A stretch of 45,772 bases of DNA from Candidatus Hodarchaeota archaeon. GTDB lineage: Archaea > Asgardarchaeota > Heimdallarchaeia > Hodarchaeales > Hodarchaeaceae. Location of the stretch: the NCBI GenBank assembly GCA_016839785.1, contig JAEOTQ010000057.1, forward strand, positions 1 through 45,772, in the 5' to 3' direction. A model generated the notes under the pieces. That model was not told the origin of the DNA. It saw only the letters and a list, made by a program, of their open reading frames with translations, and searched no databases. Positions within the stretch are counted from its first letter, which is position 1. Every line of letters starts with the position of its first letter. A program made the translations under genes and the position numbers. Shown in pieces: positions 4,209 to 45,225 of this stretch.

Positions 4209-4336
4209 CAAATCTACTGATATGTTGGAAAAAATCAATTCTATCCGTATATGGAATCAGATTTAGGATACCTTTCAGATTTATGTTTTCCAATTCAATG
4301 GGGGAAGCAATCTAAAAAATATAGGAAATCAATACG

Positions 4337-5230
4337 TTGAAAATTGGGTTTGTAGGTTCCGCAAATACAACAATTAATTGTAGGCCAGACAAGTCTTTTC
4401 GACTAGCCTCATACACCAAGAAAAAAGCATTAGAAATAATTGAATCAAATTTAACATGTATTCAAAAGACAATCGAGTTTTGTATTCGAAATCATTTCTA
4501 TTTTTACCGAATTGCAGATTTTATTCCATTTTTCTCGCATTCTATTTCAATATCGTGGGTTCAGATTGAAGAGATCTTTTCTGAATTATTTTTAGATATC
4601 GGAAAAAGAATTAGGAATAATGATATGCGAATCAGTATGCATCCTGGCCAGTATACAATACTAAATTCTCCTAAGGAAGGAGTTCTGAACAATAGTATTA
4701 AAGAATTAGAGGCGAATGTCTGGATATTAGATAAGCTGAAGCTAGACCATACCGCAAAAGTACAAATACATGTAGGGGGGATATATGGAAACAAAGAAGA
4801 AGCGACACTGCGCTTCATAAAAAATTTTCAACGCTTACCAGAATTCATGAAAAATAGAATTGTTATAGAAAATGATGATCGGTTATTTGATTTTAAAGAC
4901 TGTACAGCTCTCTCCAAGGAGCTAAACATACCTGTTGTATTTGATGTGTTTCATCATACTATTAAGAACAACAATGAGAGTACTTTGGAATCTTTAAACA
5001 TATTAGGATATTTATGGGACAATAAGGACGGTATCCCCATGGTTGATTGGAGTTATCAAGAAGTAGATGCACGAATGGGAAAGAATGCCAATACAATTGA
5101 TCTCATGTTATTTAAGAAATTTATTACTGAAATTAGTGATGAGGATTTTGACTTAATGCTTGAAATACGAGATAAGGAAAAAAGTGCGCTTCAAGCAGCC
5201 AAATTATTGCGTACACTTGGGCGATTATAG
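4337..5230 (+). CDS. uvsE: UV DNA damage endonuclease (UVDE)
   Basis: SMHPGQY, IHVGG, IENDD, FDVFHH and MLEIRDKE motifs; abuts the photolyase gene. Confidence 0.92.
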   Translation: MKIGFVGSANTTINCRPDKSFRLASYTKKKALEIIESNLTCIQKTIEFCIRNHFYFYRIADFIPFFSHSISISWVQIEEIFSELFLDIGKRIRNNDMRISMHPGQYTILNSPKEGVLNNSIKELEANVWILDKLKLDHTAKVQIHVGGIYGNKEEATLRFIKNFQRLPEFMKNRIVIENDDRLFDFKDCTALSKELNIPVVFDVFHHTIKNNNESTLESLNILGYLWDNKDGIPMVDWSYQEVDARMGKNANTIDLMLFKKFITEISDEDFDLMLEIRDKEKSALQAAKLLRTLGRL

Positions 5231-28998: not shown

Positions 28999-29520
28999 TT
29001 GGAAAAGAAAACACAGGTTTACACACTCATATGGGATAATGGTTTTGTACTGAAGAATGACGAGAAACAATCTCAGAACAAGATATTCCTTTTTATGGAT
29101 GAAGAATCAAAATATATGCGATTAACATATCCTTCTTCTATCGATTTGATTACACGGAGAACTCTGGAACGGCAGCTCCGTCAGATTCAGAAAAGAGGTT
29201 TTTTTCTCGAAAAAGAAAATCTGCGAATCGGCCAAGGTTATGAATATCAAATGGAAGAGGATAGAGATGTTTCACCATCAAGTCTAAAGGAGCATTCTCT
29301 TGAAAAAAGCCCTGATTCAACTGAAGCTGAAGATTTCCCCAAAATTGTACCGTTGATACGCGAAATTAAACAGATATGGATCCATAAGCGAACAGGTGAA
29401 GGATCAGACATGGCAGATTCTCTTGAAAATGGCCAACCGAGTTATTTTGTGTCATTTTTAGCATCTAACTATCAGAAGTTAAATATTCTTATCAATAGTC
29501 TTCCAGATAATCTCTCTTAA
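28999..29520 (+). CDS. Hypothetical protein; N-terminal ~90 aa possibly a divergent gelsolin-like domain
   Basis: 'KIFLFMDEESK..RLTY...DLITRRTLERQLRQIQKRGF' resembles the strand-strand-long-helix pattern of Asgard single-domain gelsolin-like proteins (recalled pattern, unverified). Confidence 0.5.
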   Translation: MEKKTQVYTLIWDNGFVLKNDEKQSQNKIFLFMDEESKYMRLTYPSSIDLITRRTLERQLRQIQKRGFFLEKENLRIGQGYEYQMEEDRDVSPSSLKEHSLEKSPDSTEAEDFPKIVPLIREIKQIWIHKRTGEGSDMADSLENGQPSYFVSFLASNYQKLNILINSLPDNLS

Positions 29521-29545
29521 TGATCTATAAGAATGTGTGTAATAA

Positions 29546-30214
29546 ATGGTAAGAAAAAACCACTATAATAGTGTAGAGACTATTATAACAACCTTAGAGG
29601 AAGCTGATACACAGATCTCATATGAAGAACTGAGTAAACAGACCAAGATTAGAGCAAACAGTTTGAAAATGTGGTTGAGGATTATTGAACTAGTCCAAAA
29701 TAGTACTATTTTCCTAAATTTGACTGAAAATGGGGTAGTAAGCAAATCGTTATCAGATGGTCCCGTTAATGCCCGTATTAGAGTCCAAAAGCGTGAAAAA
29801 GACCCGAAAATTCAAGCATTTCTAACAGAGTTTAAAGGAGTACTATCGAGGACCAAAATATCTTTGGAGGACGATAATATTAAGAATTACCCACAATTAA
29901 AAACTCGAACAGACCTTTCTTCACCTAGATCACCAGTATACACAGATTTACAGTCAGAACTTACTCAAGTACTTGAACAGGGGCTTTCTTTTTTATCTTC
30001 ACCTGAACAAATTAACAAAGGAGAGAATTCTAAGTCCGAAACGCGTTTCATGAATGAATTAAAACAGGCTGTCAATCTTGGAATCAAGAATCTTGAAAAA
30101 GTCGTTGTTACGGATTACAAAGAGAAAAAAGGAAGAGTCACTGCAATGAAATCTGAATTGGAGATGGCTTTTAAAGCTCGTGAAAATCGGCTTATAGAAA
30201 ATAGAAAGAATTGA
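29546..30214 (+). CDS. N-terminal HTH protein with four 16-aa amphipathic WH2-like repeats
   Basis: HTH 'ISYEELSKQTKIRANSLKMWLRII'. Repeats: FLTEFKGVLSRTKISL, LQSELTQVLEQGLSFL, FMNELKQAVNLGIKNL(EKV), MKSELEMAFKARENRL. Confidence 0.7.
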   Translation: MVRKNHYNSVETIITTLEEADTQISYEELSKQTKIRANSLKMWLRIIELVQNSTIFLNLTENGVVSKSLSDGPVNARIRVQKREKDPKIQAFLTEFKGVLSRTKISLEDDNIKNYPQLKTRTDLSSPRSPVYTDLQSELTQVLEQGLSFLSSPEQINKGENSKSETRFMNELKQAVNLGIKNLEKVVVTDYKEKKGRVTAMKSELEMAFKARENRLIENRKN

Positions 30215-30519: not shown

Positions 30520-31923
30520 ATGAATCATGAGTCATCAAAAACAATCAAACGAGTGTCCATAATTAATGCTGATACTGGGATAGAAATATACCAAAAAGAT
30601 TATGAACCTTCATTCTTCCTAGATAAAGATAATCAATTAATTTCTGGATTCATTTCGGCTTTGGTCCAATTTTCTCAAGAAATTGTTAAAGATAACATCC
30701 AAGAGATGGTTTTTTCGAACTCACAGCTATATTTAATGCGGTTTCCCACCGTTTTAATTGTAATTTTGACTCCGATTGGTATTCCTCATGAAAAAGTCAT
30801 GCCCATATTTGAAGTCTTAGGAAACGAAATTGAGAATAAATTTTCCTCTACTCAACTAGACTTCGTCACTCCAGAATTGTCTATAGAAATTGAAACAGTT
30901 ATTGATAAATGTTTGGAAAAGGATGTTCAGTTTCCTACATTTCCAATCACTAGGCAAGATACTGCCCCTAAGATTGTTATAGCTGGATTAAGAAAAGCAG
31001 GTAAAACTACAGCAATTAGAAGTTTCTTTGACTCGTGGGATAAAGAACAGCTACAAACAATACGTCCAACTGTTGATCACTCAATCTTTCACTCCTTCTT
31101 GGAAGTTATGAAGACTGAACTGACAATTTTCGACCTTGGGGGGCAAACCCAGTATGTAGACATGCATGTTAAGGATCGATCAAAGTGGAGAGGTGCAACC
31201 GCCGTTCTGTTCTTAGTAGACATGCACCAACCTGAAGAATTCTCTGCGGCTCATATTTACCTTGAAAATATAATGAAAATATATGAATCAATGAATGAAA
31301 TTCCATTTATTGCTTTAATGGGCCATAAATACGATCCTGCTGATGTCAGTGAGCTTCAACCTAATCTCATGGAATTGCTAAAGACATTTAAAGATCTCTT
31401 TAAATGGCCCCGTTATTCTGTCTTCCTGTCTTCTATCTTTGATGATTCGCTCTATTTAGCATTGATGCGTACATTGGTACGAATTGTTCCTCGTGCTCTT
31501 CTCCAAAATATCATTGGTAGTGCTATTTTCTTTGAGACGCAAAATCAAGTTTGGAGTACTATTTCAGAGGAAGTAGTTCCAGAGGCTAATTCTCGTGCAT
31601 TCTGGTCCAAAATAATAAATCTATCAATTCCATATGGAGAAAAGCTTGCTAATACTATTTTTAGAGAGTGGTTATCTGGAGAGTTTGATCAGGAAATAAA
31701 ACCAAATCTAAAGCTAATTGATGTTGCACTTAAAGATATTGCTGGGGGGATGCAAATCAATATTGTAATGCCAAAAGAGGGGAATTCTCATATCATGATT
31801 CCTGTTATTGAGGGTTTGCTCACTGGGTTAGGAAACGTTTTTGGTTTCTCACGGATTATGAGGCTTCATATAGATCAACAAACTGGGTACATCTCTACAA
31901 GCTGGGGTTTATACGAATTTTAA
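30520..31923 (+). CDS. Longin-like domain + Rag/Gtr-like small GTPase + C-terminal domain (possibly V4R/TRAPP-like)
   Basis: Longin 'NQLISGFISALVQFSQEI'; G1 GLRKAGKT, RPT, G3 DLGGQ, G4 HKYD and G5 SSIFDDSLY. The C-terminus has 'YGEKLA...IEGLLTGL'. Confidence 0.85.
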   Translation: MNHESSKTIKRVSIINADTGIEIYQKDYEPSFFLDKDNQLISGFISALVQFSQEIVKDNIQEMVFSNSQLYLMRFPTVLIVILTPIGIPHEKVMPIFEVLGNEIENKFSSTQLDFVTPELSIEIETVIDKCLEKDVQFPTFPITRQDTAPKIVIAGLRKAGKTTAIRSFFDSWDKEQLQTIRPTVDHSIFHSFLEVMKTELTIFDLGGQTQYVDMHVKDRSKWRGATAVLFLVDMHQPEEFSAAHIYLENIMKIYESMNEIPFIALMGHKYDPADVSELQPNLMELLKTFKDLFKWPRYSVFLSSIFDDSLYLALMRTLVRIVPRALLQNIIGSAIFFETQNQVWSTISEEVVPEANSRAFWSKIINLSIPYGEKLANTIFREWLSGEFDQEIKPNLKLIDVALKDIAGGMQINIVMPKEGNSHIMIPVIEGLLTGLGNVFGFSRIMRLHIDQQTGYISTSWGLYEF

Positions 31924-31925
31924 CC

Positions 31926-32318
31926 TTAGGAATTCTTTTTTTCACTCAATTTCAGGGTGACCAAATCTAGCAATTTCTCTTCCTGAAAAGGTTTAGTAAT
32001 ATAATCATTTGCCCCAAGAAATCGTGCAAAACGTATGTCGTCAGGAGTAGCTAAAGCAGATAAAAATATTAAAGGTATTTGATTGAATTTTGGATTATTC
32101 TTCAAGAATTGATATAACTCATAACCGTCCATTTCTGGCATCATGATGTCACTGACAATTAAATCAGGGAGCCTCCCTTGTGATATATCAAGCAATTTTT
32201 TTGTTGCCTCTTTTCCATTTGTAGCCATTTCCACTTCATAATTATTTGCTTCTAAAGTAACCATTATATTAAATAAAACGTCAGGATTGTCTTCAACAAC
32301 TAAAATTAATGGAGATAT
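31926..32318 (-). CDS. Stand-alone response regulator receiver (CheY-like); probable ATA start
   Basis: DLIVSDIMMPEMDG, FLSA and YITKPF motifs. The essential beta1 'LILVVEDN' lies upstream of the annotated ATG 32264, and AGGAGG precedes ATA 32318. Confidence 0.88.
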   Translation of the reverse strand: MSPLILVVEDNPDVLFNIMVTLEANNYEVEMATNGKEATKKLLDISQGRLPDLIVSDIMMPEMDGYELYQFLKNNPKFNQIPLIFLSALATPDDIRFARFLGANDYITKPFQEEKLLDLVTLKLSEKKNS

Positions 32319-32356
32319 CTTAAACGCCTCCTTTTTAACTACATTACTTGTACCTA

Positions 32357-34099
32357 TTAATCTTTCTTTTCGATTTCAATTTCATCATCTAGCTGATCTT
32401 CTTTCAGCCTCGGGATAAAGAGAATTACAGTGGTTCCATATTTTAATTTGCTTTCTAAGAAAATGTCTCCTTTGTGCATTTTTATCAGATCTCTTGCAAT
32501 TCCTAGTCCTAAACCTGTTCCAGGAATATGGTTTACCTTTTGCGATCGGAAAAATCGTTCAAACATCCTAGGTAGGTCATCATCTGAAATTCCCATGCCT
32601 TTATCTGATATCTTAACTAATACCCCTTCTGAATTCTCTTTATTATATTTTCCTTTATATTTTTCTATTCCCGTAACCAATATTGATCCTTTCTCAAATG
32701 AATATTTAATACTGTTATCTAAAATTATTCTAAATATCTGAGACATCCTATTCGGATCACCAACGAGAGGAAGTTCAATATTATTCGATATATGGACTTC
32801 TATTGATTTTGACTGAGCTCTTGGTTCTAATTGGGTCAGAACCTCCAAAATCACTTCATCTAACAGATATGATTTCCAATGAAATTTAACCCTTCTCTCA
32901 TCAATACGTGATACTAAAAGTAAATCTTCAATTAGCTCGTGTAAGAGCGTTGCATTCCGGGAAATTGCTTCCATCAATTTAGATTTAGTTGAATCAGGTA
33001 ATTTATTTCCATATTTTTCGTAATTACTTATACTTTGGTTTATAACAGTAATGGGTGTTCGCAATTCATGACTAACAGTCGAAACAAATTGTTTTCTCAT
33101 ATTATCAAATTCCACAAAAGGTGTAATGTCCTGAAATTCTATAATGGTTCCTATAGACGAAGTATCGTAATAATTTCCCATTGCAGAACCGAATTGTAGA
33201 AATAATCCTGTCATAGGTTCAATTGAAATTTCTTGTGGGAAATATGAAAAAAACAACTTTTGTATTGTGCTAAAGAATGGATTTCCCTCACTAAGAATTA
33301 AATTAACTCCCTCGATAATTTCTTTTTTGAAAATTCGTCTAAAATACTCCTTAGCGGTTTGGTTTACAATGACAACTTTTCCATCATCATCTAAAACAAT
33401 TATTCCATCTGTGATTGTGTTTAATATTAATTCTATACGTCGTTTCTGATCAAGAAGATCTTGGGTTTTTCTTTGTACTTGAGATTGCAAGAAATCTCTC
33501 GATTTGGACAATGTTTCTTCAGTTTTTTTTCGAAATATCGCAGTACCTAGTATATCTGCAAAGATTCGGATACTTCTCAAATCTTCTTCTTGCCAAGTGT
33601 GAGCCATTGTGATATTTAGGATGAATATGCACCCAGCCAAATATTCAGGAGTGAATATTGGGAAACCGATTAAACTTTGAACACCTTTTTCTTCCAGATA
33701 GTTACGTTCCTGTTCTCCAGTGCTTAGAATTCCTGAATTTCCTGCCAGGATAATTTCATGTCCTTCCCGTATTTCGTTTTGAAACCATTTAAAGTTGTAA
33801 ATTGGAAATGTGCTAAAATAATCATCTCTATTTGAAATTCGATCAGAATTCCAACCAAGAACCATGATTTCATCATTCGTTGGTTCATCAAATAAGCAAA
33901 CTAACACCCCATCCACCATATACATATGAAATAGATCCGCAATCTCTGATAAGTAATATTTCAGTGCCATTTTGAAGTTACTTGAAAATACAAGATAAGT
34001 CGAAATATCACCTATAGTCTTTTCTACCTTCAACCTGAATTCGATTTTCTCTTCCAACGTTTTTATTAACGAATTTTCATAGCTCATAAGCAGTTTCAA
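32357..34099 (-). CDS. Cytosolic sensor histidine kinase (GAF + PAS + HisKA + HATPase)
   Basis: GAF 'GVQSLIGFPIF...WQEEDL', PAS 'ITDGIIVLDDDG', H-box SHELRTP, N-box DNSIKYS, DKGMG and GTGLGL; no TM. Confidence 0.93.
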   Translation of the reverse strand: MKLLMSYENSLIKTLEEKIEFRLKVEKTIGDISTYLVFSSNFKMALKYYLSEIADLFHMYMVDGVLVCLFDEPTNDEIMVLGWNSDRISNRDDYFSTFPIYNFKWFQNEIREGHEIILAGNSGILSTGEQERNYLEEKGVQSLIGFPIFTPEYLAGCIFILNITMAHTWQEEDLRSIRIFADILGTAIFRKKTEETLSKSRDFLQSQVQRKTQDLLDQKRRIELILNTITDGIIVLDDDGKVVIVNQTAKEYFRRIFKKEIIEGVNLILSEGNPFFSTIQKLFFSYFPQEISIEPMTGLFLQFGSAMGNYYDTSSIGTIIEFQDITPFVEFDNMRKQFVSTVSHELRTPITVINQSISNYEKYGNKLPDSTKSKLMEAISRNATLLHELIEDLLLVSRIDERRVKFHWKSYLLDEVILEVLTQLEPRAQSKSIEVHISNNIELPLVGDPNRMSQIFRIILDNSIKYSFEKGSILVTGIEKYKGKYNKENSEGVLVKISDKGMGISDDDLPRMFERFFRSQKVNHIPGTGLGLGIARDLIKMHKGDIFLESKLKYGTTVILFIPRLKEDQLDDEIEIEKKD

Positions 34100-34241
34100 T
34101 CCAAAATCCTGATTTGGGGTTAGAGAGAATCAATATAATATAAATTTTAATTAAGCAGAGTTTTTCAGTTCCATATGGATGGTAATGAAACTAATAAGTT
34201 ATAAATGATAATATTAGAATAGACACAATGAGATTTTTTCC

Positions 34242-35123
34242 ATGAACGGGATTTCAGGAATTCAAAACGTCAGGATTTTAGATTTAGTATCAGGGTCAAC
34301 TTTGATAAACCGATCATATTTAAAGAACCTACATGATGAAATTCAACCAGAATTATTGATATCTACAGTATTATCTTTCACTCAAGAGTCTAAAGACCAA
34401 GAAATTACGAATACAATCATGGTCAAAGACCAGAAGGTCGTTTTGGAGACCACTGAGAACTTGGCTTTTATTGCAGTCGTAGCTGCGGATTATGAAACAT
34501 CAGATGCTAAAAGGATTTTATCTCACGTTCGAGCAAGCTTTTTCCGCCAGCATCCTGTACGGGATTGTCAATGGCAATATGGTGAAAGCATAAAATATTT
34601 TCATAAATTCGAAAAGAAATTAGATGAAATTGTACGGCATTTTAGTAATAGAAAAACTGTCCTGAAATTCGTTTTAATCGGTCGTGAGTATGCTGGGAAA
34701 ACAACTTTAACTCATGCATACGCGGGTACCAATTATGAGGGGTACTTACCCACTTTAGGATTAGACATATTGAGAATAGAGTACAAGAATAAACATATTC
34801 GCCTGTGGGATTTAGGAGGTCAACGTCAATTTAGAAGACTCTGGCCTAAATTTGCTACAGAAGCTTCAGGCATAATTTTTGTAATAGATTCGACAACAAC
34901 ACATTGGGTGGAAACTTTAGAGGTTTTTGAGATTTCAAAATTATTCCATTTACCTACTGTTATATTTGCGAATAAACAAGACTTGGTAGATCATGCAAAT
35001 TCTGTTGAATTGATTGCAGAAAAGCTTGGTGTTCCTATATCATCGATCATTGGAGGAAGTGCTTTATTAAATAAAGGTATTTATGAAGTCTTAGATCAAC
35101 TTCTCGATGAGAGTGTTTTCTAA
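34242..35123 (+). CDS. Longin-like domain + Arf-like small GTPase
   Basis: N-terminal longin-like domain; GREYAGKT, PTLG, WDLGGQRQFRRLW, IIFVIDS, ANKQD and GSA motifs. Confidence 0.88.
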   Translation: MNGISGIQNVRILDLVSGSTLINRSYLKNLHDEIQPELLISTVLSFTQESKDQEITNTIMVKDQKVVLETTENLAFIAVVAADYETSDAKRILSHVRASFFRQHPVRDCQWQYGESIKYFHKFEKKLDEIVRHFSNRKTVLKFVLIGREYAGKTTLTHAYAGTNYEGYLPTLGLDILRIEYKNKHIRLWDLGGQRQFRRLWPKFATEASGIIFVIDSTTTHWVETLEVFEISKLFHLPTVIFANKQDLVDHANSVELIAEKLGVPISSIIGGSALLNKGIYEVLDQLLDESVF

Positions 35124-35156
35124 ATTCTTCTTAAGTAGGGAATTCCACAAGAAATT

Positions 35157-35879
35157 TTATTTCTTTTCCTGCCTAGCCCGAAGTCGCTGGTAAGCAATAA
35201 TTTGAATTGCTAGTTGCTTAAATGCCTTAGTAACTCCTTCACCTGTTTTTGCACTTGTAATCACTGATTTCGTACTGAATTTGTGTTTTGTGAGAGTTTC
35301 GTAATTGATGATTCTGGCAACTCGCTCTACTCGCTCCTTAGGTACGATATGATGGATTTGGTTTCTAAACAAATCGTATTTATTTCCAACAATCATAAAG
35401 GGTACTGGACCCAAATCATTACTTTTCCATAGTTCATTGATCCAATGGCGGAGGTTATCAAATGATGTCGGGTTTGTTACATCACATACAATTAAAGCAC
35501 CATGAGATCCTTTATAGAATGCATTTCTTACTTGATGGAACTTTAATTGCCCTGCTAGATCCCAAATAATAAATTTCACTTTGGAATATCCGATTTCTGT
35601 TTCGTGGATTGCAAAATCGGCTCCAATCGTTTGTTGATATTTTGACTCGAATCCCTCTCCAAGATAAGAGCGTCTTAAAGATGTTTTTCCAACCGCTCCA
35701 TCTCCTGCTAGAATTATTTTTAGATTATATTCTCCTTCTTGTGTTTCATCAATAGTGAAATTCTTCTCTAGTTTTTTCACAGAATTTTCTTCATGTTTCG
35801 ATAAACGTGTATCTTTAATCCTTTCCCAAAGATCATAAAAAGATGAGTCAGAGCTTTCTGTATATTTTGAATCCTTCAT
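35157..35879 (-). CDS. Rab-like small GTPase
   Basis: GDGAVGKT, TIGADF, IWDLAGQ, FYKGSHGAL, GNKYD and TSAKTG; no C-terminal prenylation Cys. Confidence 0.93.
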   Translation of the reverse strand: MKDSKYTESSDSSFYDLWERIKDTRLSKHEENSVKKLEKNFTIDETQEGEYNLKIILAGDGAVGKTSLRRSYLGEGFESKYQQTIGADFAIHETEIGYSKVKFIIWDLAGQLKFHQVRNAFYKGSHGALIVCDVTNPTSFDNLRHWINELWKSNDLGPVPFMIVGNKYDLFRNQIHHIVPKERVERVARIINYETLTKHKFSTKSVITSAKTGEGVTKAFKQLAIQIIAYQRLRARQEKK

Positions 35880-35920
35880 AATGAGAGCACCTTTATTACA
35901 GATAGATTAATACTTTACCG

Positions 35921-38900
35921 CTATTTATCTAAGACTTCTTTAACATTGAGAATCCTCGGGAGAAATATCGAAAAAACTGTACCATATCCATAGTCGCTTT
36001 CAACTTGGATTTCCCCATGGTGACTTTCTATTATGGTTTTAGCAATATCTAAACCCACTCCACTCCCTGGTACATCAATTATATCATCTGAACGGAAATA
36101 TCTATCAAAAATAAATGGGATATCTTTCTCTGGAATACCTTTTCCTGAATCAATGACTTGAATTAAGATACCATCCTCATTTTTTGGATTATACTCTCCA
36201 TAATAGTGGTCTAAAGCCTCAATCCGTACTTTAGAGTGCCTTTTACTATACTTAAATGCATTATCAAGTAAAATTCGAAAAACTTGACTTAATCTTTTTC
36301 CATCTCCCAAGAATTCGATATTTGACGCAATATTACAACTTAAACTTATCTCTCGCTCAGATCGTTTCGAATCCATCTGGATTAAAACCTCTTTCACGGT
36401 TTTTCTTAATTTTACATTCTGCCAATTAAGATTAAACTTTCCAGCTTCAATCCGTGAGACAATCAGTAGATCCTCTACCATTTGAGTAAGCACATCAGAA
36501 CTGAAACTCATAGTTTCGATAAGAGATTTTTTCTCAAGTTCAGAGAACTTATCCCAATACCGCTGCAAATTTTGGAGAGAGAGACTTATCCCTGTAATAG
36601 GAGTTCGTAATTCATGTGAAACAGTGGAAACAAATTGTTTTCTCAAATTATTCAATTCGACAAATGGAGTTACGTCCCGAACCACAATTACTACGCCTAT
36701 ATGTGTATTAGGTTGACTTATAACTTTAGAAGATGCTAATTCTAAATGAAATCCTTTTACCGGTTCTATAGTTGTATTTATATCTTTTTTTGAATAAAAA
36801 ATCTTAGAAATTGTGTCTCCAAATTTATTCTTCAGAATCAAAACCTCATTCAGAAATTTTGGTAATTTACTCTGATAAATTTTCTGATAAAATTCATGAA
36901 ACTTCTTATTTATCAGAATAAATTTCATCTTCGAGTCAATAACCACAATTCCAGTAGGTATAGTTTCGACTATGGCTTCAATCCTCAATTTTTCTTTTTT
37001 CAAATCGTGTGTTCTTTTGTCAATTTGGTCCGAAAGATAATCTCGTGCTTGTAGCAAGAAATCCTCAGCCTTCTTTTTCGCAGTAATATCTGATACAATT
37101 GCAAAAGATCCCAGGATTTCATTTTTATTATCAAAAATTAATCTTCCAGAGACTCTCGCTATTAACGGTATTCCATCTTTACAAATAAATGTTAGTTCAT
37201 AAGAAGATGAATCTATTTGCTCACTGAACCTCTCTTTCGAAACAGCGGTAAAAGTTGTCAATGAGTTCGTATCCAAGAAATCTTTGACGTGATGCCCAAG
37301 CATTTCATTTTTAGTATAACCTAGCATTTTCTCAAGTGCGGGATTCACGAAGGTTGTTATATCTTCTTTATCTGTTACCCAAATCCCCTCTGGAGAGGTT
37401 GAAACTAACCTTCTGTAGTTTTCTTCGCTTTTCTTCAACGCTTCTTCCGCTTGCTTTCGTTCAGTGATATCCTCACCTGAACTAAGGGTTCCTATGATCA
37501 CCCCTTTTTCATCAGTTAACATGGTATTAAACCAGGAGATCTCTCTAACTTCCCCTTCTTTTGTCATAATTGGATTTTCAAATCGGTCTTTTTGAGATAT
37601 TCTCCCCTCTAGTAAATTTCTGAAAACAGTTCGAACTTTCTCTCTGTATCTGGAAGGAAGGAATGAATCAAACCAGTTTTTACCAAGTATTTCATGTTCT
37701 GAATAACCTAAAGTTTCACATCCCATCCGATTTATTAAAGTCACTTCCTGATTTTTATTCAGTGCCAGCATAATCACTGGAATGATATCAAGATATCTTT
37801 GAGCTGTGTCCCGCTCCTTTCTCAAGATTACCTCGATTGATTTTTGTTCTGAGATATCGTTGAGGATATGGACAACCTCAGTAACATCTCCCCTCTCATC
37901 GTTTATTGGGAATAGTTGACTTTGAACCCATAATTTTTTTGTACCTTCAAATTCATGAATATCTGGATTATTAGGGTTAAAAAAGATAGAAGGAAGAGAG
38001 ATATTTTCACCTGCGAAACCTCGCTTAATAAAAGGCATTAGACCCTTTTTTTCCAATTGCTCATCATCTAAGATATTGTAGTTCCCTAGAATATATTCAT
38101 AGTGTTCCTGAGATATGCCCCAAAGTTTCCTTGCTGCCTGATTTCCAAAAATTACATTACCATTTTTCTCATGCACAACAATACCTGCAGGATATTGTTC
38201 TATTAGACTTCTAAATCGCGATTCTGATTCCTGTAGCTCGTTTTCAATCCTCTTCAACTCAGATACATCGCGAATTATTGATAGAATTGATACTGGTTTA
38301 TCATTCTCATATAAAACAACTGATTTTGCGTATCGATTTACCCATTGGCCTTTTTTATTTTTGACACGATATTCTACACTTGATTTTCCTTTTTCCATAA
38401 GAATTGTGTCACTAATTTTTAGACGAGGAGCGTCATCTGGATGAATACGAGAGTATCTATCTAGATCGATATTGTCTATATCTTCGAATCCTAAGCTTGA
38501 ATAATATGCCTTGTTCCGATAAATATGTTTACCTTCTAAATCAGTTTGAATAATAACATCATCTGCAGCATTGATTAATGTTTCAAATCTCCTTTTCGAC
38601 TTTTTTAATTCGCTGTTAATCCGCTTCTTCTCGGTTATGTCACTTAATATAGCAATTATTCCCCAAGGTGTGGGATATATATCTGAGTTATAATGTCTAT
38701 CTGTAAAAGGTACTTCTAAACTTTTAGCCTTCTTATTATCGAATACATCACTGATTAATGTATATAAAAGAGAATTCTCAAACTCGGAAGAAATTTCAAG
38801 CAAATTTGATCCTTCTATTCCTTCTGCTGTATTTTTGTCTAACAGCTCTGCAAAAGAATCGTTACAAAATAGAATAGAGAAGTCTGAAATAAGTGCCACA

Positions 38901-38968
38901 ATTGGGGATTGAATACACTGTAAAAGAACTCTATGCTTTAGATCGAAATCTTTGTTGCTTTCGGACAT
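35921..38968 (-). CDS. Cytosolic multi-PAS (about six) sensor histidine kinase
   Basis: Repeated PAS/PAC units ending DITE/DVSE/DISE/DITA; SHELRTP, DNAFKYS, DSGKG and GSGVGL; no TM. Confidence 0.94.
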   Translation of the reverse strand: MSESNKDFDLKHRVLLQCIQSPIVALISDFSILFCNDSFAELLDKNTAEGIEGSNLLEISSEFENSLLYTLISDVFDNKKAKSLEVPFTDRHYNSDIYPTPWGIIAILSDITEKKRINSELKKSKRRFETLINAADDVIIQTDLEGKHIYRNKAYYSSLGFEDIDNIDLDRYSRIHPDDAPRLKISDTILMEKGKSSVEYRVKNKKGQWVNRYAKSVVLYENDKPVSILSIIRDVSELKRIENELQESESRFRSLIEQYPAGIVVHEKNGNVIFGNQAARKLWGISQEHYEYILGNYNILDDEQLEKKGLMPFIKRGFAGENISLPSIFFNPNNPDIHEFEGTKKLWVQSQLFPINDERGDVTEVVHILNDISEQKSIEVILRKERDTAQRYLDIIPVIMLALNKNQEVTLINRMGCETLGYSEHEILGKNWFDSFLPSRYREKVRTVFRNLLEGRISQKDRFENPIMTKEGEVREISWFNTMLTDEKGVIIGTLSSGEDITERKQAEEALKKSEENYRRLVSTSPEGIWVTDKEDITTFVNPALEKMLGYTKNEMLGHHVKDFLDTNSLTTFTAVSKERFSEQIDSSSYELTFICKDGIPLIARVSGRLIFDNKNEILGSFAIVSDITAKKKAEDFLLQARDYLSDQIDKRTHDLKKEKLRIEAIVETIPTGIVVIDSKMKFILINKKFHEFYQKIYQSKLPKFLNEVLILKNKFGDTISKIFYSKKDINTTIEPVKGFHLELASSKVISQPNTHIGVVIVVRDVTPFVELNNLRKQFVSTVSHELRTPITGISLSLQNLQRYWDKFSELEKKSLIETMSFSSDVLTQMVEDLLIVSRIEAGKFNLNWQNVKLRKTVKEVLIQMDSKRSEREISLSCNIASNIEFLGDGKRLSQVFRILLDNAFKYSKRHSKVRIEALDHYYGEYNPKNEDGILIQVIDSGKGIPEKDIPFIFDRYFRSDDIIDVPGSGVGLDIAKTIIESHHGEIQVESDYGYGTVFSIFLPRILNVKEVLDK

Positions 38969-39001
38969 CTACTCATCTCTAAAGGATTGCCATAGGAGAA
39001 T

Positions 39002-39898
39002 TCATGATTGAATCAAATCAGTCATGAGAATTTCGACCATTCTTTTCCAATATGGCTCAATTTTCCACTCTATTCCATTCCTGATATTCCTAGCTAATTC
39101 AGTGAACTCTTCCTCAATCCTCAATGACTCAAGATAATTTATTCTAGGAGCTAAAGCAACTAACATGAACTGTCTCTTACCACCTCTTACCTCGTCATCA
39201 TCGATTGCGTCAAAATATATATATCCATCTTTATTTATGCTAGCTATTCTTAATAAGAGCCCTTGTGGATCATAATCTGTGGTTTGTCCATAGACTGAAA
39301 CTGTTGCTTGGAATAGTTGTGTTCCAATGATATCAAAATCAATAGATGAATCAACTTTTTCTGGAAAAATGGTAGTAATTTTCGGTCCAAATGACTCATC
39401 CCAATCTATAATTAGGATAACTAATTCTTCTTTTTCACCTTTCATGAGTGAAGGTTTAAGATTTTTGATTAATAAGTCCAATATTTTTTGGCCAATCTTC
39501 TGAGAATATGTGCTCTGAAATTTATTTCTCCTTAGCTTTCCCTTTATACTTGCGAGTAAATCATCATTGTCAAAGGGCTTGATGATATAATCATCTACGC
39601 CGAGTTTTTTACCAAATCGAACATCTTCGGGATCAGATTTTGCTGTTAAGAAAATAAATGGAATCCGAAACCAATTAGGATTATCAGAAACTTTCTCAAA
39701 GAAATCGTAGCCATCCATTTCAGGCATCATAATATCACTAAGAATTAAATCTGGAGGATTGTCCATTGTTTCAAGTAGTTTTAACGCTTCGACTCCATTT
39801 TGAGCTTTGTACGTCTGATAATCATTCAACCTAAGAATCAAATCAAGATTCAGCATTATTTGCTTATTATCTTCTACAATCAAGATTGTTTTTGTCAA
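39002..39898 (-). CDS. Response regulator: receiver fused to a uDENN/longin-like output domain
   Basis: Receiver ILIVEDN, DLILSDIMMP, FLTA and KPF. The C-terminal domain 'ILIIDWDESFGPKITTIFP...GYIYF...RGGKRQFMLVAL' has no HTH. Confidence 0.85.
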   Translation of the reverse strand: MTKTILIVEDNKQIMLNLDLILRLNDYQTYKAQNGVEALKLLETMDNPPDLILSDIMMPEMDGYDFFEKVSDNPNWFRIPFIFLTAKSDPEDVRFGKKLGVDDYIIKPFDNDDLLASIKGKLRRNKFQSTYSQKIGQKILDLLIKNLKPSLMKGEKEELVILIIDWDESFGPKITTIFPEKVDSSIDFDIIGTQLFQATVSVYGQTTDYDPQGLLLRIASINKDGYIYFDAIDDDEVRGGKRQFMLVALAPRINYLESLRIEEEFTELARNIRNGIEWKIEPYWKRMVEILMTDLIQS

Positions 39899-40383: not shown

Positions 40384-41058
40384 CTATTGAATAACCCTCG
40401 TCATTATCTTTCCTTCAGCCTTCCGAAGATGTTCTAAGATGGCGGCCTTAGAGACTCCAAATTCACGTGCTAATTCCATTGTAGTAATCTTACGAGGGAT
40501 TTCATAATATCCTGATTGTTTTGCTTTTATTAAAATTGCTTTTTGTCGTTCAGTTAACCCAGATAAGATACTTTCATCATTATATGTGTGATCCTGAATT
40601 CTTAAGACAGTTAAATCTCCGACAACTTTCTTAACCAAAGTTAAAAATGAGGATAACGCTTTTTCTTCACCTAAAATCGAAAAAACCAGACGGTTACCTT
40701 CTAAGTAAGCAGGAGTTTCATAAAATATCTCTTCTATTCCAAAAGGTGAAAAATTCGAATGTATAGTGCTTAGGGTTGCATAGTCATAGTGTATTTGGAT
40801 AAGAACAAGAAATTGATTTTCATGTTGAGTGAAAACTTTTAGGATTCTAGCAAATGGAGGAAAAGGAATATCATCTAAGGTATACCCAGATTTCATGGTA
40901 AATTCAACAATGGCTATTTTTTCACCTTTCTGATAATCAATCTTCAATAAAGATTTAGCCTCGATTTTATCAACTAGGGCTTGAATTGATGAAAAAGCAT
41001 CAAAAGAAATCTTTTCCGTAAGAATGGAAAAATCGATTTCTAAAGTTATGGTTCGCAA
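40384..41058 (-). CDS. Transcriptional regulator with C-terminal HTH-10 (bacterio-opsin activator-type) domain
   Basis: LTERQKAIL..A...GYYEIPRKITTMELAREFGVSKAAILEHLRKAEGKI; divergent from the ABC operon. Confidence 0.9.
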   Translation of the reverse strand: MRTITLEIDFSILTEKISFDAFSSIQALVDKIEAKSLLKIDYQKGEKIAIVEFTMKSGYTLDDIPFPPFARILKVFTQHENQFLVLIQIHYDYATLSTIHSNFSPFGIEEIFYETPAYLEGNRLVFSILGEEKALSSFLTLVKKVVGDLTVLRIQDHTYNDESILSGLTERQKAILIKAKQSGYYEIPRKITTMELAREFGVSKAAILEHLRKAEGKIMTRVIQ

Positions 41059-41248: not shown

Positions 41249-42154
41249 ATGACATCTGAAACAAAGATCGAAATTAAAGGATTAACGAAATACTATGGGA
41301 AAACTCGCGGGATAGAGGATTTAGATCTCGAAGTTAAAAGTGGTGAAATATTTGGATTTCTGGGCCCAAATGGGGCGGGGAAAACAACCACAATACGCTG
41401 TATGATGAATACACTGTTACCAACTAAAGGAGAAATAAGAATCTCAGGTGAGTTAGTAACACGAGGAAATCCAAAGTTGCGAGAGAAGATAGGGTATGTT
41501 CCAGGTGAATTGGCTTTACCTGAATATTATAGAGTTAATGAATTCCTAAATTATATTGAAGCCATGCGAGGTAAACCAGAGACACGACGTCAAGAAATAA
41601 TAGATCGATTTGATCTGAATTCTAACCTTCACAAGAAAATTGGAGAATTGTCGAAGGGTAACAAACAGAAACTAGGCATTGTCTCTGCGTTTATGAATGA
41701 TCCTGAGGTTCTTATAATGGATGAGCCCACAGCTGGGTTAGATCCATTACTCCAACAAGAGGTCTATAAACTTTTAATTGAATCAAAAAAGGAGGGGAAA
41801 ACACTTTTTATGAGTTCTCATAATCTTGAAGAAGTCCAAAGAGTATGTGATCGAGTTGGGATAGTTAAAAATGGTTCACTTATTAGTATAGAGGATATTG
41901 AAAATCTTAACAAGGATGTTCCCCGTATCGTGGAAGCACGTCTTCGAAATCCTGACGAAACTCGCCTTGCCGAATTTGGTAATCGACTACTCGAATTTCG
42001 AAAGCATGATAGTTTCGTTCGAATATTGATTCGCATGGAGGATTCGATAAAGGATAATATAGGGATTCTTTTAGCTCAGGATCCAGAGGAGCTTATTTAT
42101 CCCCCTGCGAGTCTTGAAGAGTTCTTCTTGCAGTTCTATGAAAGGAAAAATTAG
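41249..42154 (+). CDS. ABC-2 type transporter ATP-binding protein
   Basis: GPNGAGKTT, LSKGNKQK, LIMDEP and SSH motifs. Confidence 0.95.
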   Translation: MTSETKIEIKGLTKYYGKTRGIEDLDLEVKSGEIFGFLGPNGAGKTTTIRCMMNTLLPTKGEIRISGELVTRGNPKLREKIGYVPGELALPEYYRVNEFLNYIEAMRGKPETRRQEIIDRFDLNSNLHKKIGELSKGNKQKLGIVSAFMNDPEVLIMDEPTAGLDPLLQQEVYKLLIESKKEGKTLFMSSHNLEEVQRVCDRVGIVKNGSLISIEDIENLNKDVPRIVEARLRNPDETRLAEFGNRLLEFRKHDSFVRILIRMEDSIKDNIGILLAQDPEELIYPPASLEEFFLQFYERKN

Positions 42155-42165
42155 GTGAACCAAGA

Positions 42166-43878
42166 ATGACTATCAAATTCACAGTTCAACGCCTTTGGCT
42201 TGATATGAAGAGGTATAGAACTTTTTCATTACTAATAGCTCTTATTTTTCCGATAGGTGCTGCTCTTTTTTTTATTATCTACCCTGGTCCTGAATTCTTC
42301 GATGTTTTTCTTGAGATACCTGCTTTTCAAGCTCTTGTTGGGGAGCTACCTGATATTGGAAATCCAAGTTTACTCCTTTGGATCCTAATACTTTTAGCAA
42401 TATTTCTAAATATCCTATATCCAGTAATAGGGATCCTATTTGGAGCTCGTATTTTACCATTTAATGAGAATGACGGAAAAGAATTAATTTTTAGCACAGA
42501 GAAATCACCTTTAGAGTATTTTTTAGAAAATTTGTTCCTTGTGGTCATCTTAATTTCGCTGGTTGTGTTACCAGCGTATCTCGTAGGATTAGGTTTCCTC
42601 TTTTCAGATGAGGGTGCTGTACCGTCTTTTACAATCGCTTTTATCCTTCCTCTCTTTTTTGCATTAGTTGTAACACTAGTTACTAGTCTGGGTTGTGCAA
42701 TTTGGTCATCTACGAGAGCTGGTTATGCCTTAGGTGGTATCTTCTTCATTGTGTCGTTTACTTTGGATCTCTTACAACAAGAAATCGACTTCGTAAAGGA
42801 TTTCAACCTGATGACGAAGAGTAATGCTATGTTGCACGCCATAAAAGGAACTTGGAATTTAGAATTCATCCTCACATGTCTCTTTCTAATGGTACTTCTT
42901 ATAATCTTGACAATTTTCTTCTTATATAGGACAGATTACATTGAAACACGCTCATCATACAATAAACCAGTTAACCTAGAAGAAAGCCGTGGAATTATAG
43001 CTAAATTTTCTTTCATACGTACTCCTGTCGAATCAGTACTTTCTCAAGTTGGATGGAAAAATCCAGCCTTTCGAGATCAGCTACAATCGTCAGCAGGATT
43101 ATTTCTGATTTATTCAGTTGTAACGTGCGGTTTACTAATGTTGGTAGCTTTAGTATATCCTGGAGATGCAGCGATGAAGGAAGTGTTTTCTGGATTGGAT
43201 GCAGTATTTAATTCTCCTATCATAGCTGCTTTTCTGTTTGGGCATCAGTTGACGGCGAGTCTAGAGGGCTTCTTGCTTTACAAGATTATGGCTTTCCATT
43301 GGATTTACTATGGTCCCTTTCTCTTCATTGCAACGTATAGTATTATTTTGCGTGATAAAAGTGCAGGATATGACGAAATAACCTGGTCGATGCCCCGTAC
43401 TCGCTCTAAGGTTATCGTGGAAAGAACGATTGCAGCTATCTTGTATCTCTGGATAATTATAGTTGCAAATTTTGTTGCACTTTACTCAGGGGAAATTATT
43501 CTGAGCACCTATGCAGATATTGTGATGACAGACTTTATGGCTACTGTTCTAACATTTTTCTATCTAGCGTTAGGGTACAGTCTTTTTCTCATAATTTTTG
43601 TTGCATTAGCCTCGATTCCACGGCCAAAATATCTAGCATTAACACTTCTAGGGGCTTTTCTAATAGCGGTGTTTATACCATTAATTTGGTACATAAATCA
43701 AGAGCTTTCATGGTTATTGTACCTCTCGCCCTTCTATTATTTCGATGTCGCAGGATTATTTTTGAGTGATATCCGCCTTGTAGAAATAATCCCCGAAACA
43801 ATCATCTATGGAGCTATTTCTCTCATATTTCTTGTCACAGTTCTCAGATTCTGGACTCCTAGGCGTGATATAACTTAA
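42166..43878 (+). CDS. ABC-2 type permease with two tandem permease domains
   Basis: Two similar ~6-TM halves (IIYPGPE / LVYPGDA); SPFYYF and RRDI terminus; follows the ATPase. Confidence 0.85.
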   Translation: MTIKFTVQRLWLDMKRYRTFSLLIALIFPIGAALFFIIYPGPEFFDVFLEIPAFQALVGELPDIGNPSLLLWILILLAIFLNILYPVIGILFGARILPFNENDGKELIFSTEKSPLEYFLENLFLVVILISLVVLPAYLVGLGFLFSDEGAVPSFTIAFILPLFFALVVTLVTSLGCAIWSSTRAGYALGGIFFIVSFTLDLLQQEIDFVKDFNLMTKSNAMLHAIKGTWNLEFILTCLFLMVLLIILTIFFLYRTDYIETRSSYNKPVNLEESRGIIAKFSFIRTPVESVLSQVGWKNPAFRDQLQSSAGLFLIYSVVTCGLLMLVALVYPGDAAMKEVFSGLDAVFNSPIIAAFLFGHQLTASLEGFLLYKIMAFHWIYYGPFLFIATYSIILRDKSAGYDEITWSMPRTRSKVIVERTIAAILYLWIIIVANFVALYSGEIILSTYADIVMTDFMATVLTFFYLALGYSLFLIIFVALASIPRPKYLALTLLGAFLIAVFIPLIWYINQELSWLLYLSPFYYFDVAGLFLSDIRLVEIIPETIIYGAISLIFLVTVLRFWTPRRDIT

Positions 43879-44217: not shown

Positions 44218-45225
44218 TTAATTGAGATAAGAGAGAAGATTAGTTTGAACGAACGGTCTAGAATAGACTTGATGATGCCAGTTCCAGACTCCATACAATT
44301 GACTCAGGATACAGGTGAGTAAAACATATTTCGTGACTTTTTTCACTCCTCTCACGGGAACTGTTCGTCCCTGGAGAATTTCCTTGAAGCTAGAATTGTA
44401 ACGTTCAACAGACATTCGTTGATAATAATACTTTTGACGTAAACGTATCCCTTCAGTTCCTAGACATCGTTTTCTCCAGTTTCTCTGTGGTAGATTAAGA
44501 AACTGTTTGATTTTTGACTTCTTGGGATTATAATCAATCAAAGGAACAAGTTGCAATTGGATACAACGATGATAGCTTTTCTTATCATCACAAGCCGAAT
44601 CAGAGGTTAGTAAAGTAGCGTTACATAAGTTTCGAGATTCTAGATCATCGAATAACCGTTGTGCGGTCATAGATTGATGAATATTGGCGGGACTAACCCG
44701 AGCCGCTCGGACCATTTCACTATCTGAACCTGTTACAAATTGCACCCAATAGCCATGGAATCGTTCTTTATCAGATTTATAGCCGAATCCTGCCTCTGAA
44801 TCGGAATTATGCTTATTTCGACCATTGGAGAGGATATCAGTAGCGTCTAGGGATAATTCGTCTTTTAGAAAAGCTCCTTCTTTAGCTAGATAATCATCGA
44901 TTTTCCGAATGATAGTTTGCAACCGTTTTTGACTTATTTTACGGTTGAATCTAGAAAAAGTATCATGTGAGGGAATATGATCGTTCCTAAATCCACAAAA
45001 CTGGCGATAGGTGACATTCTCTTCCAATTTACGGACTAGAGCGGTATCATACTGGATGTGTTCTCTGATCTTTAATAGTAGAGCCAAAAAGAGATTAATT
45101 GAAGAAAATCCTGTCCTTCCTAAACGAGATTTTCGCTTAGGTAACCATCGGTTAAATTTAAGACTGAGAACACAATCTTTAAGTAGGGGTAACGATACGG
45201 TTGTAGTGGAGCGAATGGTTGCTAT
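44218..45225 (-). mobile_element. DDE transposase (IS4/IS5/IS1182-like); probable ATA start at 45225
   Basis: YRQFCGF..IPSHDTFSRF, SLDATD, DSACD and YYQRMSVERYNS motifs. The open frame extends 46 codons upstream of TTG 45087 and includes GRTGFS..NLFLALLLK. Terminal repeats not resolved. Confidence 0.85.

Follow-up and report, generated by a model that had tools for sequence, protein, structure and literature searches.

The contig JAEOTQ010000057.1 of a Candidatus Hodarchaeota archaeon, analyzed over its 45,772 nucleotides (referred to as the window), carries between positions 30520 and 39898 seven genes in which two-component systems are interleaved with eukaryote-type small GTPases, and comparison with other genomes gave good support to a functional link between the two groups of genes. 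In order along the window, they encode a longin-Rag-like GTPase (P1), a single-domain receiver (P2), a GAF/PAS histidine kinase (P3), an Arf-like GTPase (P4), a Rab-like GTPase (P5), a six-PAS histidine kinase (P6), and a response regulator in which a receiver precedes a longin domain (P7, or receiver-longin). The explanation that we favor, and hold with moderate confidence, is that the locus is a cytoplasmic signaling island of a Hodarchaeales-type Asgard archaeon, in which two paralogous His-Asp pairs are coupled to three eukaryote-like GTPases and the receiver-longin would be a phosphorylation-gated regulator, most probably a GTPase-activating protein (GAP).

To assess gene neighborhoods, the P7 family was searched for in 201 sampled genomes of the phylum at an E value of ≤1e-40. 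It was present in 43 of them: 5 of 9 genomes of group f1 plus the source genome itself, 2 of 22 of f2, 34 of 40 of f13, and the single genome of f21 (1 of 1). The open reading frames (ORFs) of 39 loci from other genomes were labeled by phmmer with the window proteins, and Pfam was run on 68 of them; since related genomes are not independent, synteny is given here as counts, with no statistical test. In 29 of the 39 loci, drawn from no fewer than 6 genera in 2 families, the receiver-longin gene either adjoined a small GTPase gene or had a single kinase gene between itself and the GTPase gene. The order small GTPase, kinase, receiver-longin on one strand was found in 19 loci from 3 genera of f13, a receiver-longin gene directly beside a GTPase gene of ∼182 amino acids (aa) in 7 loci, and other linked arrangements in 3 (L031, L032, and L037). 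Of the 29 linked loci, 26 have a neighboring GTPase whose best match was the Rag-like P1 or the Arf-like P4 and not the Rab-like P5. The 11 cassette GTPases examined with Pfam consisted of the G domain only and were Gtr1_RagA/Arf-like (1e-14 to 1e-24).

The linkage was also observed where the genes had been rearranged. Within the genus of the source organism, one genome (G102) contains all seven genes in 10 kb, with a kinase gene followed by the receiver-longin gene, then a Rab-like gene on the opposite strand, a longin-Rag gene, and, again on the opposite strand, the receiver, kinase, and longin-Arf genes. A second one (G130) shows the order receiver-longin, longin-Rag, kinase, Rab-like on one strand, and a third (G136) the order Rab-like, longin-Rag, kinase. 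Taking the P1 family as the starting point, 8 distinct loci were obtained from other genomes, three duplicate loci being counted once; a kinase or receiver gene was no more than two genes away in 5 of the 8, and a Rab-like gene in 6. The kinase-receiver pair was placed tail-to-tail with a longin-GTPase gene in all three further loci that contain such a pair (L031/L076, L075, and L077). The tables of the P7, P1, and P4 families have five largest-contig sizes in common (34416, 165639, 78077, 35039, and 71102), so the three families probably share contigs, and the best matches to all three carry Hodarchaeales names.

As a control, the neighborhoods of another Rag-like family (∼302 aa, ∼30% identical to the P1 G domain) were analyzed in the same terms, and a kinase or receiver gene within two genes was found in none of its 74 loci. 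The adjacency of two-component and GTPase genes across genomes is thus far beyond chance. Since it recurs in 29 of the 39 loci, has outlasted rearrangement and long divergence, and is absent from the 74 control loci, a functional link between the two-component and the eukaryote-type GTPase genes is well supported. A preliminary description of the window, made from its sequence, had proposed this link and had named synteny across Asgard genomes as the check. The proposal is borne out by the linked loci, the P1-family loci, and the control, together with the fold and motifs of GTPase regulators in the receiver-longin. The check itself gave a divided answer: the neighborhood is conserved, but the exact gene order is not, since the order of the window was kept nowhere else and G102, the only other genome with all seven genes, has them rearranged.

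The f13 cassettes have features of their own. A gene for an ArsR-type helix-turn-helix (HTH) protein precedes the cassette GTPase in all seven loci tested with Pfam, and an Lrp/AsnC gene lies upstream of the ArsR-type gene, divergent in six of the seven and co-directional in L062. The ∼111-aa ORF before the cassette GTPase had been considered as an MglB-like roadblock protein and was discarded as such, its Pfam match being to the ArsR-type HTH. In L062, a lone ORF of 99 aa (positions 4165 to 4464 of that locus) resembles the P7 longin (46 bits) and lies two genes downstream of the receiver-longin gene. Compared with these cassettes, the window has an orthologous receiver-longin (40 to 48% identity) and related kinases (cassette kinases score 200 to 300 bits to P3 or P6). 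It differs in that the array has neither an ArsR gene nor a Rag-like gene limited to the G domain, in its order of receiver-longin, kinase, Rab-like, in the extra longin-like domains of the GTPases P1 and, probably, P4 (P1 having a C-terminal domain as well), and in the presence of a second, paralogous kinase-receiver pair.

In the source assembly (4.04 Mb in 248 contigs, 84.5% complete), the seven ORFs follow one another with no other ORF of ≥100 aa between them save one nested antisense frame. ORF calls and Pfam agree on the seven signaling genes, as the preliminary description had them. The intergenic gaps from P1 to P7 measure 2, 92, 142, 33, 41, and 33 bp; P7, P6, and P5 form an array on the same strand, with P5 as its last gene. 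The earlier figure of 2 to 41 bp for intramodule gaps requires P2 to start at an ATA codon at 32318, which leaves 38 bp between P2 and P3; with the ATG-initiated ORF the gap is 92 bp. Similarly, the view of the locus as two modules of like arrangement is right in that the kinases are paralogous and the receivers are paralogous, but the gene order within the modules differs. Neither receiver protein has a DNA-binding domain according to Pfam, as had been said. Solubility, which had been taken as given for all products, is better stated as probable, as judged from Kyte-Doolittle hydropathy: averaged over 19 residues, it stays at or below 1.9 throughout all seven.

Longin domains are part of several eukaryotic GAP complexes, namely, FLCN-FNIP, which acts on RagC/D, the NPRL2-NPRL3 pair of GATOR1, which acts on RagA/B, and C9orf72-SMCR8, which acts on Arf. 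P7 (39002 to 39898, minus strand; 298 aa, TTG start) begins with a receiver (Pfam Response_reg, 7e-26) whose acceptor set is intact (E9, D10, D55, T85, and K107, read, as for P2, by alignment to the Pfam match), followed by ∼170 residues with no Pfam match. Its longin domain spans approximately residues 150 to 298. An AlphaFold2 (AF2) model of this part, built on a 51-sequence alignment, had a mean predicted local distance difference test score (pLDDT) of 88.1 and the topology bbabbbaa (b, strand; a, helix). The top Foldseek match was a GATOR1 chain (9o5d_D, E value of 3e-5), followed by FNIP2/FLCN complexes, DENND10, and the Lokiarchaeota longin 8yqg (8yqg_B, TMq of 0.54). When the top 1000 Foldseek chains were realigned with VIA-align, 8yqg_B ranked with a Z score of 13.1 (root mean square deviation [rmsd] of 3.0 over 134 aligned residues), the Lst4 longin with 12.4, the FLCN GAP complex chain 8dhb_J with 11.6, C9orf72-SMCR8 with 11.2, and GATOR1 with 10.5, the range including GATOR1 being 10.1 to 13.1. 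Other classes reached 10.0 (DENND1B), 9.8 (TRAPP longins), 9.0 (Mon1-Ccz1), and ∼8.3 (MglB). On the model, the output domain of P7 folds as a longin of the FLCN/NPRL2/SMCR8 type, and the earlier assignment of a C-terminal longin to this protein is upheld by the model and by both structural searches. The family is widespread, with full-length members in more than 120 clusters from archaea labeled Hod-, Thor-, Hel-, Loki-, and Odin-.

Four residues of P7, W166, G171, P172, and R238 (W40, G45, P46, and R112 of the domain), are invariant in all 51 family sequences, and D167 (domain D41) is nearly so. They include a WDxxxGP motif in which W-D stands three residues ahead of the G171-P172 pair that opens strand 2 in the AF2 model; R238 lies in the loop between strands 4 and 5. 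According to the accessible text of PMC12290439, a GP motif that closes the strand 1-2 loop or opens strand 2 is specific to the GAP longins FLCN, NPRL2, SMCR8, and C9orf72, whereas longins without GAP function, such as those of DENND and TRAPP proteins, do not have it. One class of Asgard longins is described there as having the motif beside an arginine finger, and the question is raised which GTPases these longins serve. Human C9orf72 has W33-D34 and G38-P39 in the same account, and the spacing of the motif in P7 is that of the human protein. In the all-antiparallel longin sheet, the strand 1-2 and 4-5 loops would be neighbors at one edge, and R238 may be likened to the arginine fingers FLCN R164, NPRL2 R78, and SMCR8 R147, a comparison drawn from loop position and modeled geometry rather than from a superposition. 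P7 has in common with the eukaryotic longin GAPs the longin fold, a GP at the start of strand 2, the W-D pair of C9orf72, an invariant arginine in the neighboring loop, and adjoining Rag- and Arf-like genes. It differs from them in having no DENN or NPRL2-specific domain and in its input, predicted to be a phosphorylated receiver and not amino acid-sensing complexes.

The two kinases of the locus are P3 (32357 to 34099, minus strand; 580 aa), with HisKA, HATPase_c, PAS (1e-4), and borderline GAF matches (22.6 bits against a cutoff of 22.4), and P6 (35921 to 38968, minus strand; 1,015 aa), with PAS, HisKA, and HATPase_c. In both, HisKA and HATPase_c score above the Pfam cutoffs. Their catalytic boxes are complete: P3 has the H-box SHELRTP (His344), LDNSIKY as the N box, DKGMG as G1, and GTGLGL as G2, and P6 has SHELRTP (His785), LDNAFKY, DSGKG, and GSGVGL, respectively. 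Six consecutive segments of P6 each match PAS models, the first one weakly (20.9 and 19.5 bits). Between the two kinases, identity is 39% across 398 residues comprising the last PAS, the dimerization and histidine phosphotransfer, and the catalytic and ATP-binding regions (E value of 7e-95), and the P2 and P7 receivers are 45% identical over 128 residues. Since both kinases and both receivers are paralogues, the locus holds, by sequence, a duplicated kinase-receiver pair, in one copy of which the kinase gene precedes the receiver gene and in the other follows it.

P2 is a CheY-like receiver (minus strand; Response_reg, 6.5e-21) whose start is unusual. Its longest ORF from ATG, GTG, or TTG (31926 to 32264) has 112 aa, starts at position 18 of the Response_reg profile, and is devoid of strand 1 and the acidic pair. 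The frame stays open upstream, encoding KISPLILVVEDN, and a profile search of the genome contigs matched positions 1 to 110 of the receiver model at 31959 to 32306. The full acceptor set (acidic pair, Asp, Thr/Ser, and Lys) is present only with a start upstream of the first ATG. Orthologues of 139 aa start with MN (ATG), and the same site in the window reads S-N (AGT AAT). An AAGGAGG (32333 to 32327) is located 8 nucleotides (nt) ahead of an in-frame ATA (32318 to 32316). A 681-nt contig from a sequencing run, of depth 4 and possibly from the same sample, is identical to 31889 to 32500. Translation probably starts at ATA 32318, or at ATT 32306, the probable gene being 31926 to 32318. P2 may instead be a shortened receiver that has no usual start and would not be phosphorylatable.

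Among the GTPases, in all three of which the G1, G3, and G4 motifs read as complete, P1 (30520 to 31923, plus strand; 467 aa) matches Gtr1_RagA (6e-15), with its G domain at residues 147 to 325 and the motifs GLRKAGKT (G1), DLGGQ (G3), and HKYD (G4). An HKxD G4 is typical of Rag proteins. In an AF2 model of moderate quality (pLDDT of 73.7), the best VIA-align match was LokiRagO (8yl2_A; Z score of 20.7, rmsd of 2.7, 156 aligned residues), followed by LokiRagM (9m28_A; 16.9, model residues 148 to 444) and human RagD (2q3f; 16.5), and P1 has a Rag-type G domain. The 19 full-length homologues found are mostly named Hodarchaeales. Beyond the G domain, the preliminary description had overlooked a C-terminal region of ∼140 residues (approximately 325 to 465), modeled as three helices followed by bbabb. 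The matches to LokiRagM and to a Schizosaccharomyces pombe Gtr chain reach model residues 444 and 439, respectively, and the model is compatible with either a roadblock-like or a V4R/Bet3-like domain. No Pfam match was obtained for this region, and a profile of five such C-terminal domains run against the Protein Data Bank (PDB) sequences gave four matches, all with E values of >0.3.

P4 (34242 to 35123, plus strand; 293 aa) matches the Arf model (6e-27) over profile positions 3 to 172 of 174, with the motifs GREYAGKT (G1), DLGGQ (G3), NKQD (G4), and SAL (G5). Its 19 full-length Asgard homologues are followed by eukaryotic Arf, Arl, and TRIM23 at 30 to 37% identity. It has no amphipathic or myristoylated helix at the mature N terminus; a domain of ∼128 residues, probably a longin, precedes the G domain. 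This assignment draws on subthreshold matches, to Pfam Longin in 7 of 20 family members at an E value of ≤1 (best, 0.0019) and to Fuz_longin_1 in 2 of 20. In the ESM Atlas, the N terminus gave scores of 0.79 to 0.81, below the level at which they count, and Fuz_longin_1 was present in 34% of one cluster at 0.80, which is taken as a lead only. Some P4-family members, of 469 to 475 aa (L077:4452-5879; P0155, P0156, P0158, and P0160), have a GAF domain C-terminal to the Arf-like G domain, so that a sensor is fused directly to a GTPase. For its part, P5 (35157 to 35879, minus strand; 240 aa) matches Ras (2e-38), with GDGAVGKT, DLAGQ, NKYD, and SAK motifs and an N-terminal extension of ∼50 residues. 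Its best solved relatives by sequence are the Thorarchaeota Rab 7ezb (2e-27), Rab8A (7e-27), Rab21, and Ypt7, and its basic C terminus (…RLRARQEKK) has no cysteine prenylation motif.

The preliminary description had placed longins at the N termini of both P1 and P4. For P1, residues ∼11 to 133 show a longin topology in the moderate model; for P4, the subthreshold Pfam matches are what speaks for it. The P1 and P4 N termini and the P7 C terminus showed no mutual similarity by BLASTP or by profile-profile comparison, and their sequences give no grounds for placing these longin-type domains in a single family. No GP was present at the corresponding site in the P1 and P4 sequences. A Pfam search at an E value of ≤10 with the isolated P7 C terminus, P1 N and C termini, and P5 N-terminal extension returned nothing useful.

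In the mechanism that we propose, the PAS and GAF domains would sense an intracellular cue and the kinase would phosphorylate Asp55 of P7, altering the dimer state or the exposure of its longin, as in many response regulators. The P7 longin dimer would then act on a neighboring GTPase, most probably as a GAP supplying Arg238 and, with less probability, as an exchange factor or platform; GAP activity is favored because of the GP motif and the invariant arginine. Receivers commonly dimerize on phosphorylation. Given this, the pocket of the eukaryotic GAPs, which is formed by two longin domains (PMC12290439, in its accessible text), and the Loki longin 8yqg, a dimer according to its entry title, a longin dimer driven by phosphorylation is preferred. 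The candidate targets are the Rab-like P5, encoded in the same gene array, and the Rag-like P1. In the branch from P3 to P2, the bare receiver, whose gene stays tail-to-tail with a longin-GTPase gene, probably binds the adjacent longin-GTPase directly. A prediction of the complex of the P7 longin with the P5 G domain scored 0.01 (mark, 0.32), which counts neither for nor against the mechanism.

A further-reaching idea, which we consider distinctly unlikely, is that the eukaryotic longin GAPs descend from a form like the receiver-longin, which would be ancestral to them and self-sufficient. A single protomer would combine the WDxxxGP of C9orf72 with an arginine of the FLCN/NPRL2/SMCR8 type, and receiver dimerization would build a symmetric pocket, or else the protomer would pair with the GP-less longin of the longin-Rag or longin-Arf protein, as FLCN does with FNIP. 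Were this true, the eukaryotic nutrient-sensing Rag/Arf GAP machinery would go back to the output arm of a His-Asp relay, in the lineage of archaea that is closest to eukaryotes.

Several observations weigh against the phosphorylation-gated GAP and the coupling that it implies. Ten of the 39 loci (L033, L041, L045, L046, L053, L054, L057, L060, L063, and L068), two of them at contig ends, have no GTPase gene next to the receiver-longin gene. At E values of ≤1e-25 and ≤1e-30, P1-family matches and P4 orthologues were found in only 6 (the source genome included) and 2 of the 201 genomes, respectively, and the exact seven-gene order was not conserved. The pointers to the target diverge, P5 being in the P7 array here and the partners in f13 being Rag/Arf-like. 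Moreover, orthology of the f13 cassette GTPase to P1 found no support, its closest match in the source genome being on contig C129 (81 bits) versus 58 bits for P1. P7 ends with its longin; no second longin subunit was identified as its partner, the P1 and P4 N termini having no profile similarity to it, and the likeness of R238 to an arginine finger comes from loop position and model geometry. Finally, P2 has lost its canonical start codon, so the P3-P2 pair may be impaired.

Part of this evidence has been read in other ways. If P7 were an exchange factor or a passive platform, like the Rab-activating longins of Mon1-Ccz1, TRAPP, and DENN proteins, phosphorylation would turn the Rab-like P5 on; besides the place of the Rab-like gene in the P7 array, this would agree with the Rab-like genes adjoining the P7 homologue in G102, G130, and L037, with the matches of the P7 model to DENND1B, TRAPP, and Mon1-Ccz1, and with exchange-factor activity being more typical of longins than GAP activity, as put in the accessible text of PMC12290439. 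We hold it to be unlikely, because the top eukaryotic matches of P7 are subunits of GAP complexes, the GP motif that is invariant in the family is one that, by the same account, non-GAP longins do not have, and the neighboring GTPases are predominantly Rag- or Arf-like, including the 11 assigned by Pfam. Signaling might also run in reverse or within a complex, the GTPases binding the kinases and modulating them while the receiver-longin serves as an effector or in feedback. The precedent is the conservon, a system of a histidine kinase, a roadblock protein of the MglB type, and a GTPase of the Ras-like kind, with interactions dependent on kinase and GTPase activity (PMC4316618, PMC13343842, and PMC13621833, in the text accessible for each); in the f13 cassette, moreover, the gene immediately upstream of the kinase gene is that of the GTPase. 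A response regulator is missing from conservons, however, as far as the accessible text of PMC4316618 goes, whereas each kinase here has a cognate receiver with its acceptor residues intact, and a longin downstream of the receiver in a fusion occupies the usual output position; such a flow is accordingly rated as very unlikely.

That the genes are neighbors by chance, or merely coregulated in a GTPase-rich genome with no direct biochemical link, would be in keeping with what is seen within the source genome. It contains 58 Ras-model and 63 Arf-model matches, corresponding to ∼68 distinct loci as counted by eye, along with 12 receiver and 22 HATPase_c matches. With approximately one GTPase per ∼59 kb, a GTPase gene would be expected within ≤1.5 kb at 2 to 3 of the roughly two dozen two-component loci, and 3 were seen, so kinase-GTPase adjacency in this genome is no more than chance, a further point against the coupling. 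GTPase genes also cluster among themselves there (contigs C116, C129, and C130), and GTPase genes of MK-D1 are generally not in operons with their regulators in the accessible text of Tran et al. 2024 (PMC10933270). We nevertheless regard chance as hardly probable at all, in view of the linkage kept through rearrangement in 29 of the 39 loci, its absence from the 74 control loci, and the fusion of the receiver to an output domain with the fold of GTPase regulators. The third pair of the source genome, on contig C56 (L067:7166-9445), consists of an Arf-like gene (303 aa, with an N-terminal extension) directly upstream, on the same strand, of a GAF-HATPase_c kinase gene (430 aa).

The preliminary description spoke of an undescribed pathway, a claim that has to be withdrawn. 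Many fusions of NPRL2-like longins to two-component domains in Asgard archaea, and longin-Rag fusions as well, were already reported by Liu et al. 2020 (bioRxiv 10.1101/2020.10.19.343400), who proposed that regulation stayed centered on two-component systems and thus drew the same inference, as the accessible text of that preprint has it. The locus is therefore a Hodarchaeales-type variant of an idea already in print. Shared with those fusions are a longin of the NPRL2/FLCN kind joined to two-component domains and the proposed control of GTPases or growth through two-component systems. In the same text, on the other hand, fusions are described with no conserved kinase/GTPase neighborhood, most such genes being outside conserved neighborhoods, and what is additional in the locus are its Rab-like, longin-Rag, and longin-Arf partners, along with the other kinase-receiver pair, which ends in a bare receiver. 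A literature search, which did not extend to bioRxiv figures and supplements, found no published description of a receiver-longin/kinase/GTPase neighborhood. In the accessible part of the survey by Galperin et al. 2018 (PMC5847659), a receiver-longin regulator is not listed, and a roadblock-like output domain in Thaumarchaeota is noted.

Asgard Rags with longin and roadblock domains (8yl2 and 9m28) offer another comparison. The P1 G domain is closest to LokiRagO, and the plan of longin, GTPase, and C-terminal domain is among the architectures listed by Tran et al. (PMC10933270), where longin-GTPase-RB proteins appear. In the accessible text of that paper no operon link, and no general one between GTPase and regulator, is reported, whereas genes for kinases, receivers, and Rab-like proteins are found repeatedly next to relatives of P1. 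Bacterial systems resemble the locus as well: Myxococcus MglA/MglB with RomR and Frz, and the actinobacterial conservon (PMC4316618, accessible text), likewise bring a histidine kinase-type input, a regulator of the roadblock/longin superfamily, and a small GTPase into one genetic system. They do so with MglA-type GTPases and the MglB roadblock in place of longins of the GAP type and GTPases related to Rag, Arf, and Rab; the conservon, which includes a CvnC protein, is devoid of a receiver, and RomR has no longin. No roadblock gene was detected by Pfam on the proteins of the locus and its flanks, and two receivers are present, which places the locus outside both the conservon and the MglA-MglB type. 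The likeness is presented as an analogy, and homology is not claimed. One of the loci with no GTPase neighbor, L046, does encode a MAPKK1_Int/Roadblock (LAMTOR3-like) protein of 161 aa (8354 to 8839) two genes downstream of the receiver-longin gene, directly upstream of which a TFIIB gene is found.

To our knowledge, no Asgard small-GTPase GAP or guanine nucleotide exchange factor has been assigned to its GTPase. Matching the two is difficult because the genes are generally not in operons, as stated in the accessible text of Tran et al. 2024 (PMC10933270). The locus and its relatives provide defined candidate sets for assay, probably soluble, of kinase, receiver-longin, and Rab-, Rag-, and Arf-like GTPases from the Hodarchaeales group, the lineage nearest to eukaryotes. 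If the proposed coupling is true, it shows how eukaryote-type GTPase switches were controlled before eukaryotes, and a positive result would bear on whether a GAP of the FLCN/GATOR1/C9orf72 type predates them.

Around the locus, an HTH_10 gene (40384 to 41058, minus strand) is found upstream of P7 at a distance of 485 bp. On its other side, in divergent orientation, are a gene for an ABC ATPase and an ORF of 570 aa with no Pfam match (41249 to 43878, plus strand). The HTH_10 gene was discarded as a member of the GTPase system, having no homologue near the receiver-longin gene in the 39 loci of other genomes; it more likely encodes a regulator of the ABC ATPase gene and the 570-aa ORF. A gene for a DDE transposase (DDE_Tnp_1 plus DUF772; 44218 to 45087, minus strand) is located ∼4 kb from the locus, near the end of the window. 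Directly upstream of P1, two plus-strand ORFs of 173 and 222 aa (28999 to 30214) have no Pfam match, and no homologues of either were found adjoining the P1 relatives of the other loci.

The control family presented a neighborhood of its own. In the majority of the 74 loci (L081 to L154; for example, L095:6558-10906), which come from many Asgard lineages, its ∼302-aa Gtr1/RagA-like gene follows two others, one for an FrhB/FdhB-like Fe-S protein (∼497 aa) and one for a protein with HEAT repeats (∼531 aa). This ties a Rag-like GTPase to a redox enzyme, for which no explanation is offered. In ∼14 of the 74 loci, an HTH_10 gene of 226 to 244 aa, homologous to the one at 40384 to 41058 in the window, is found just upstream.

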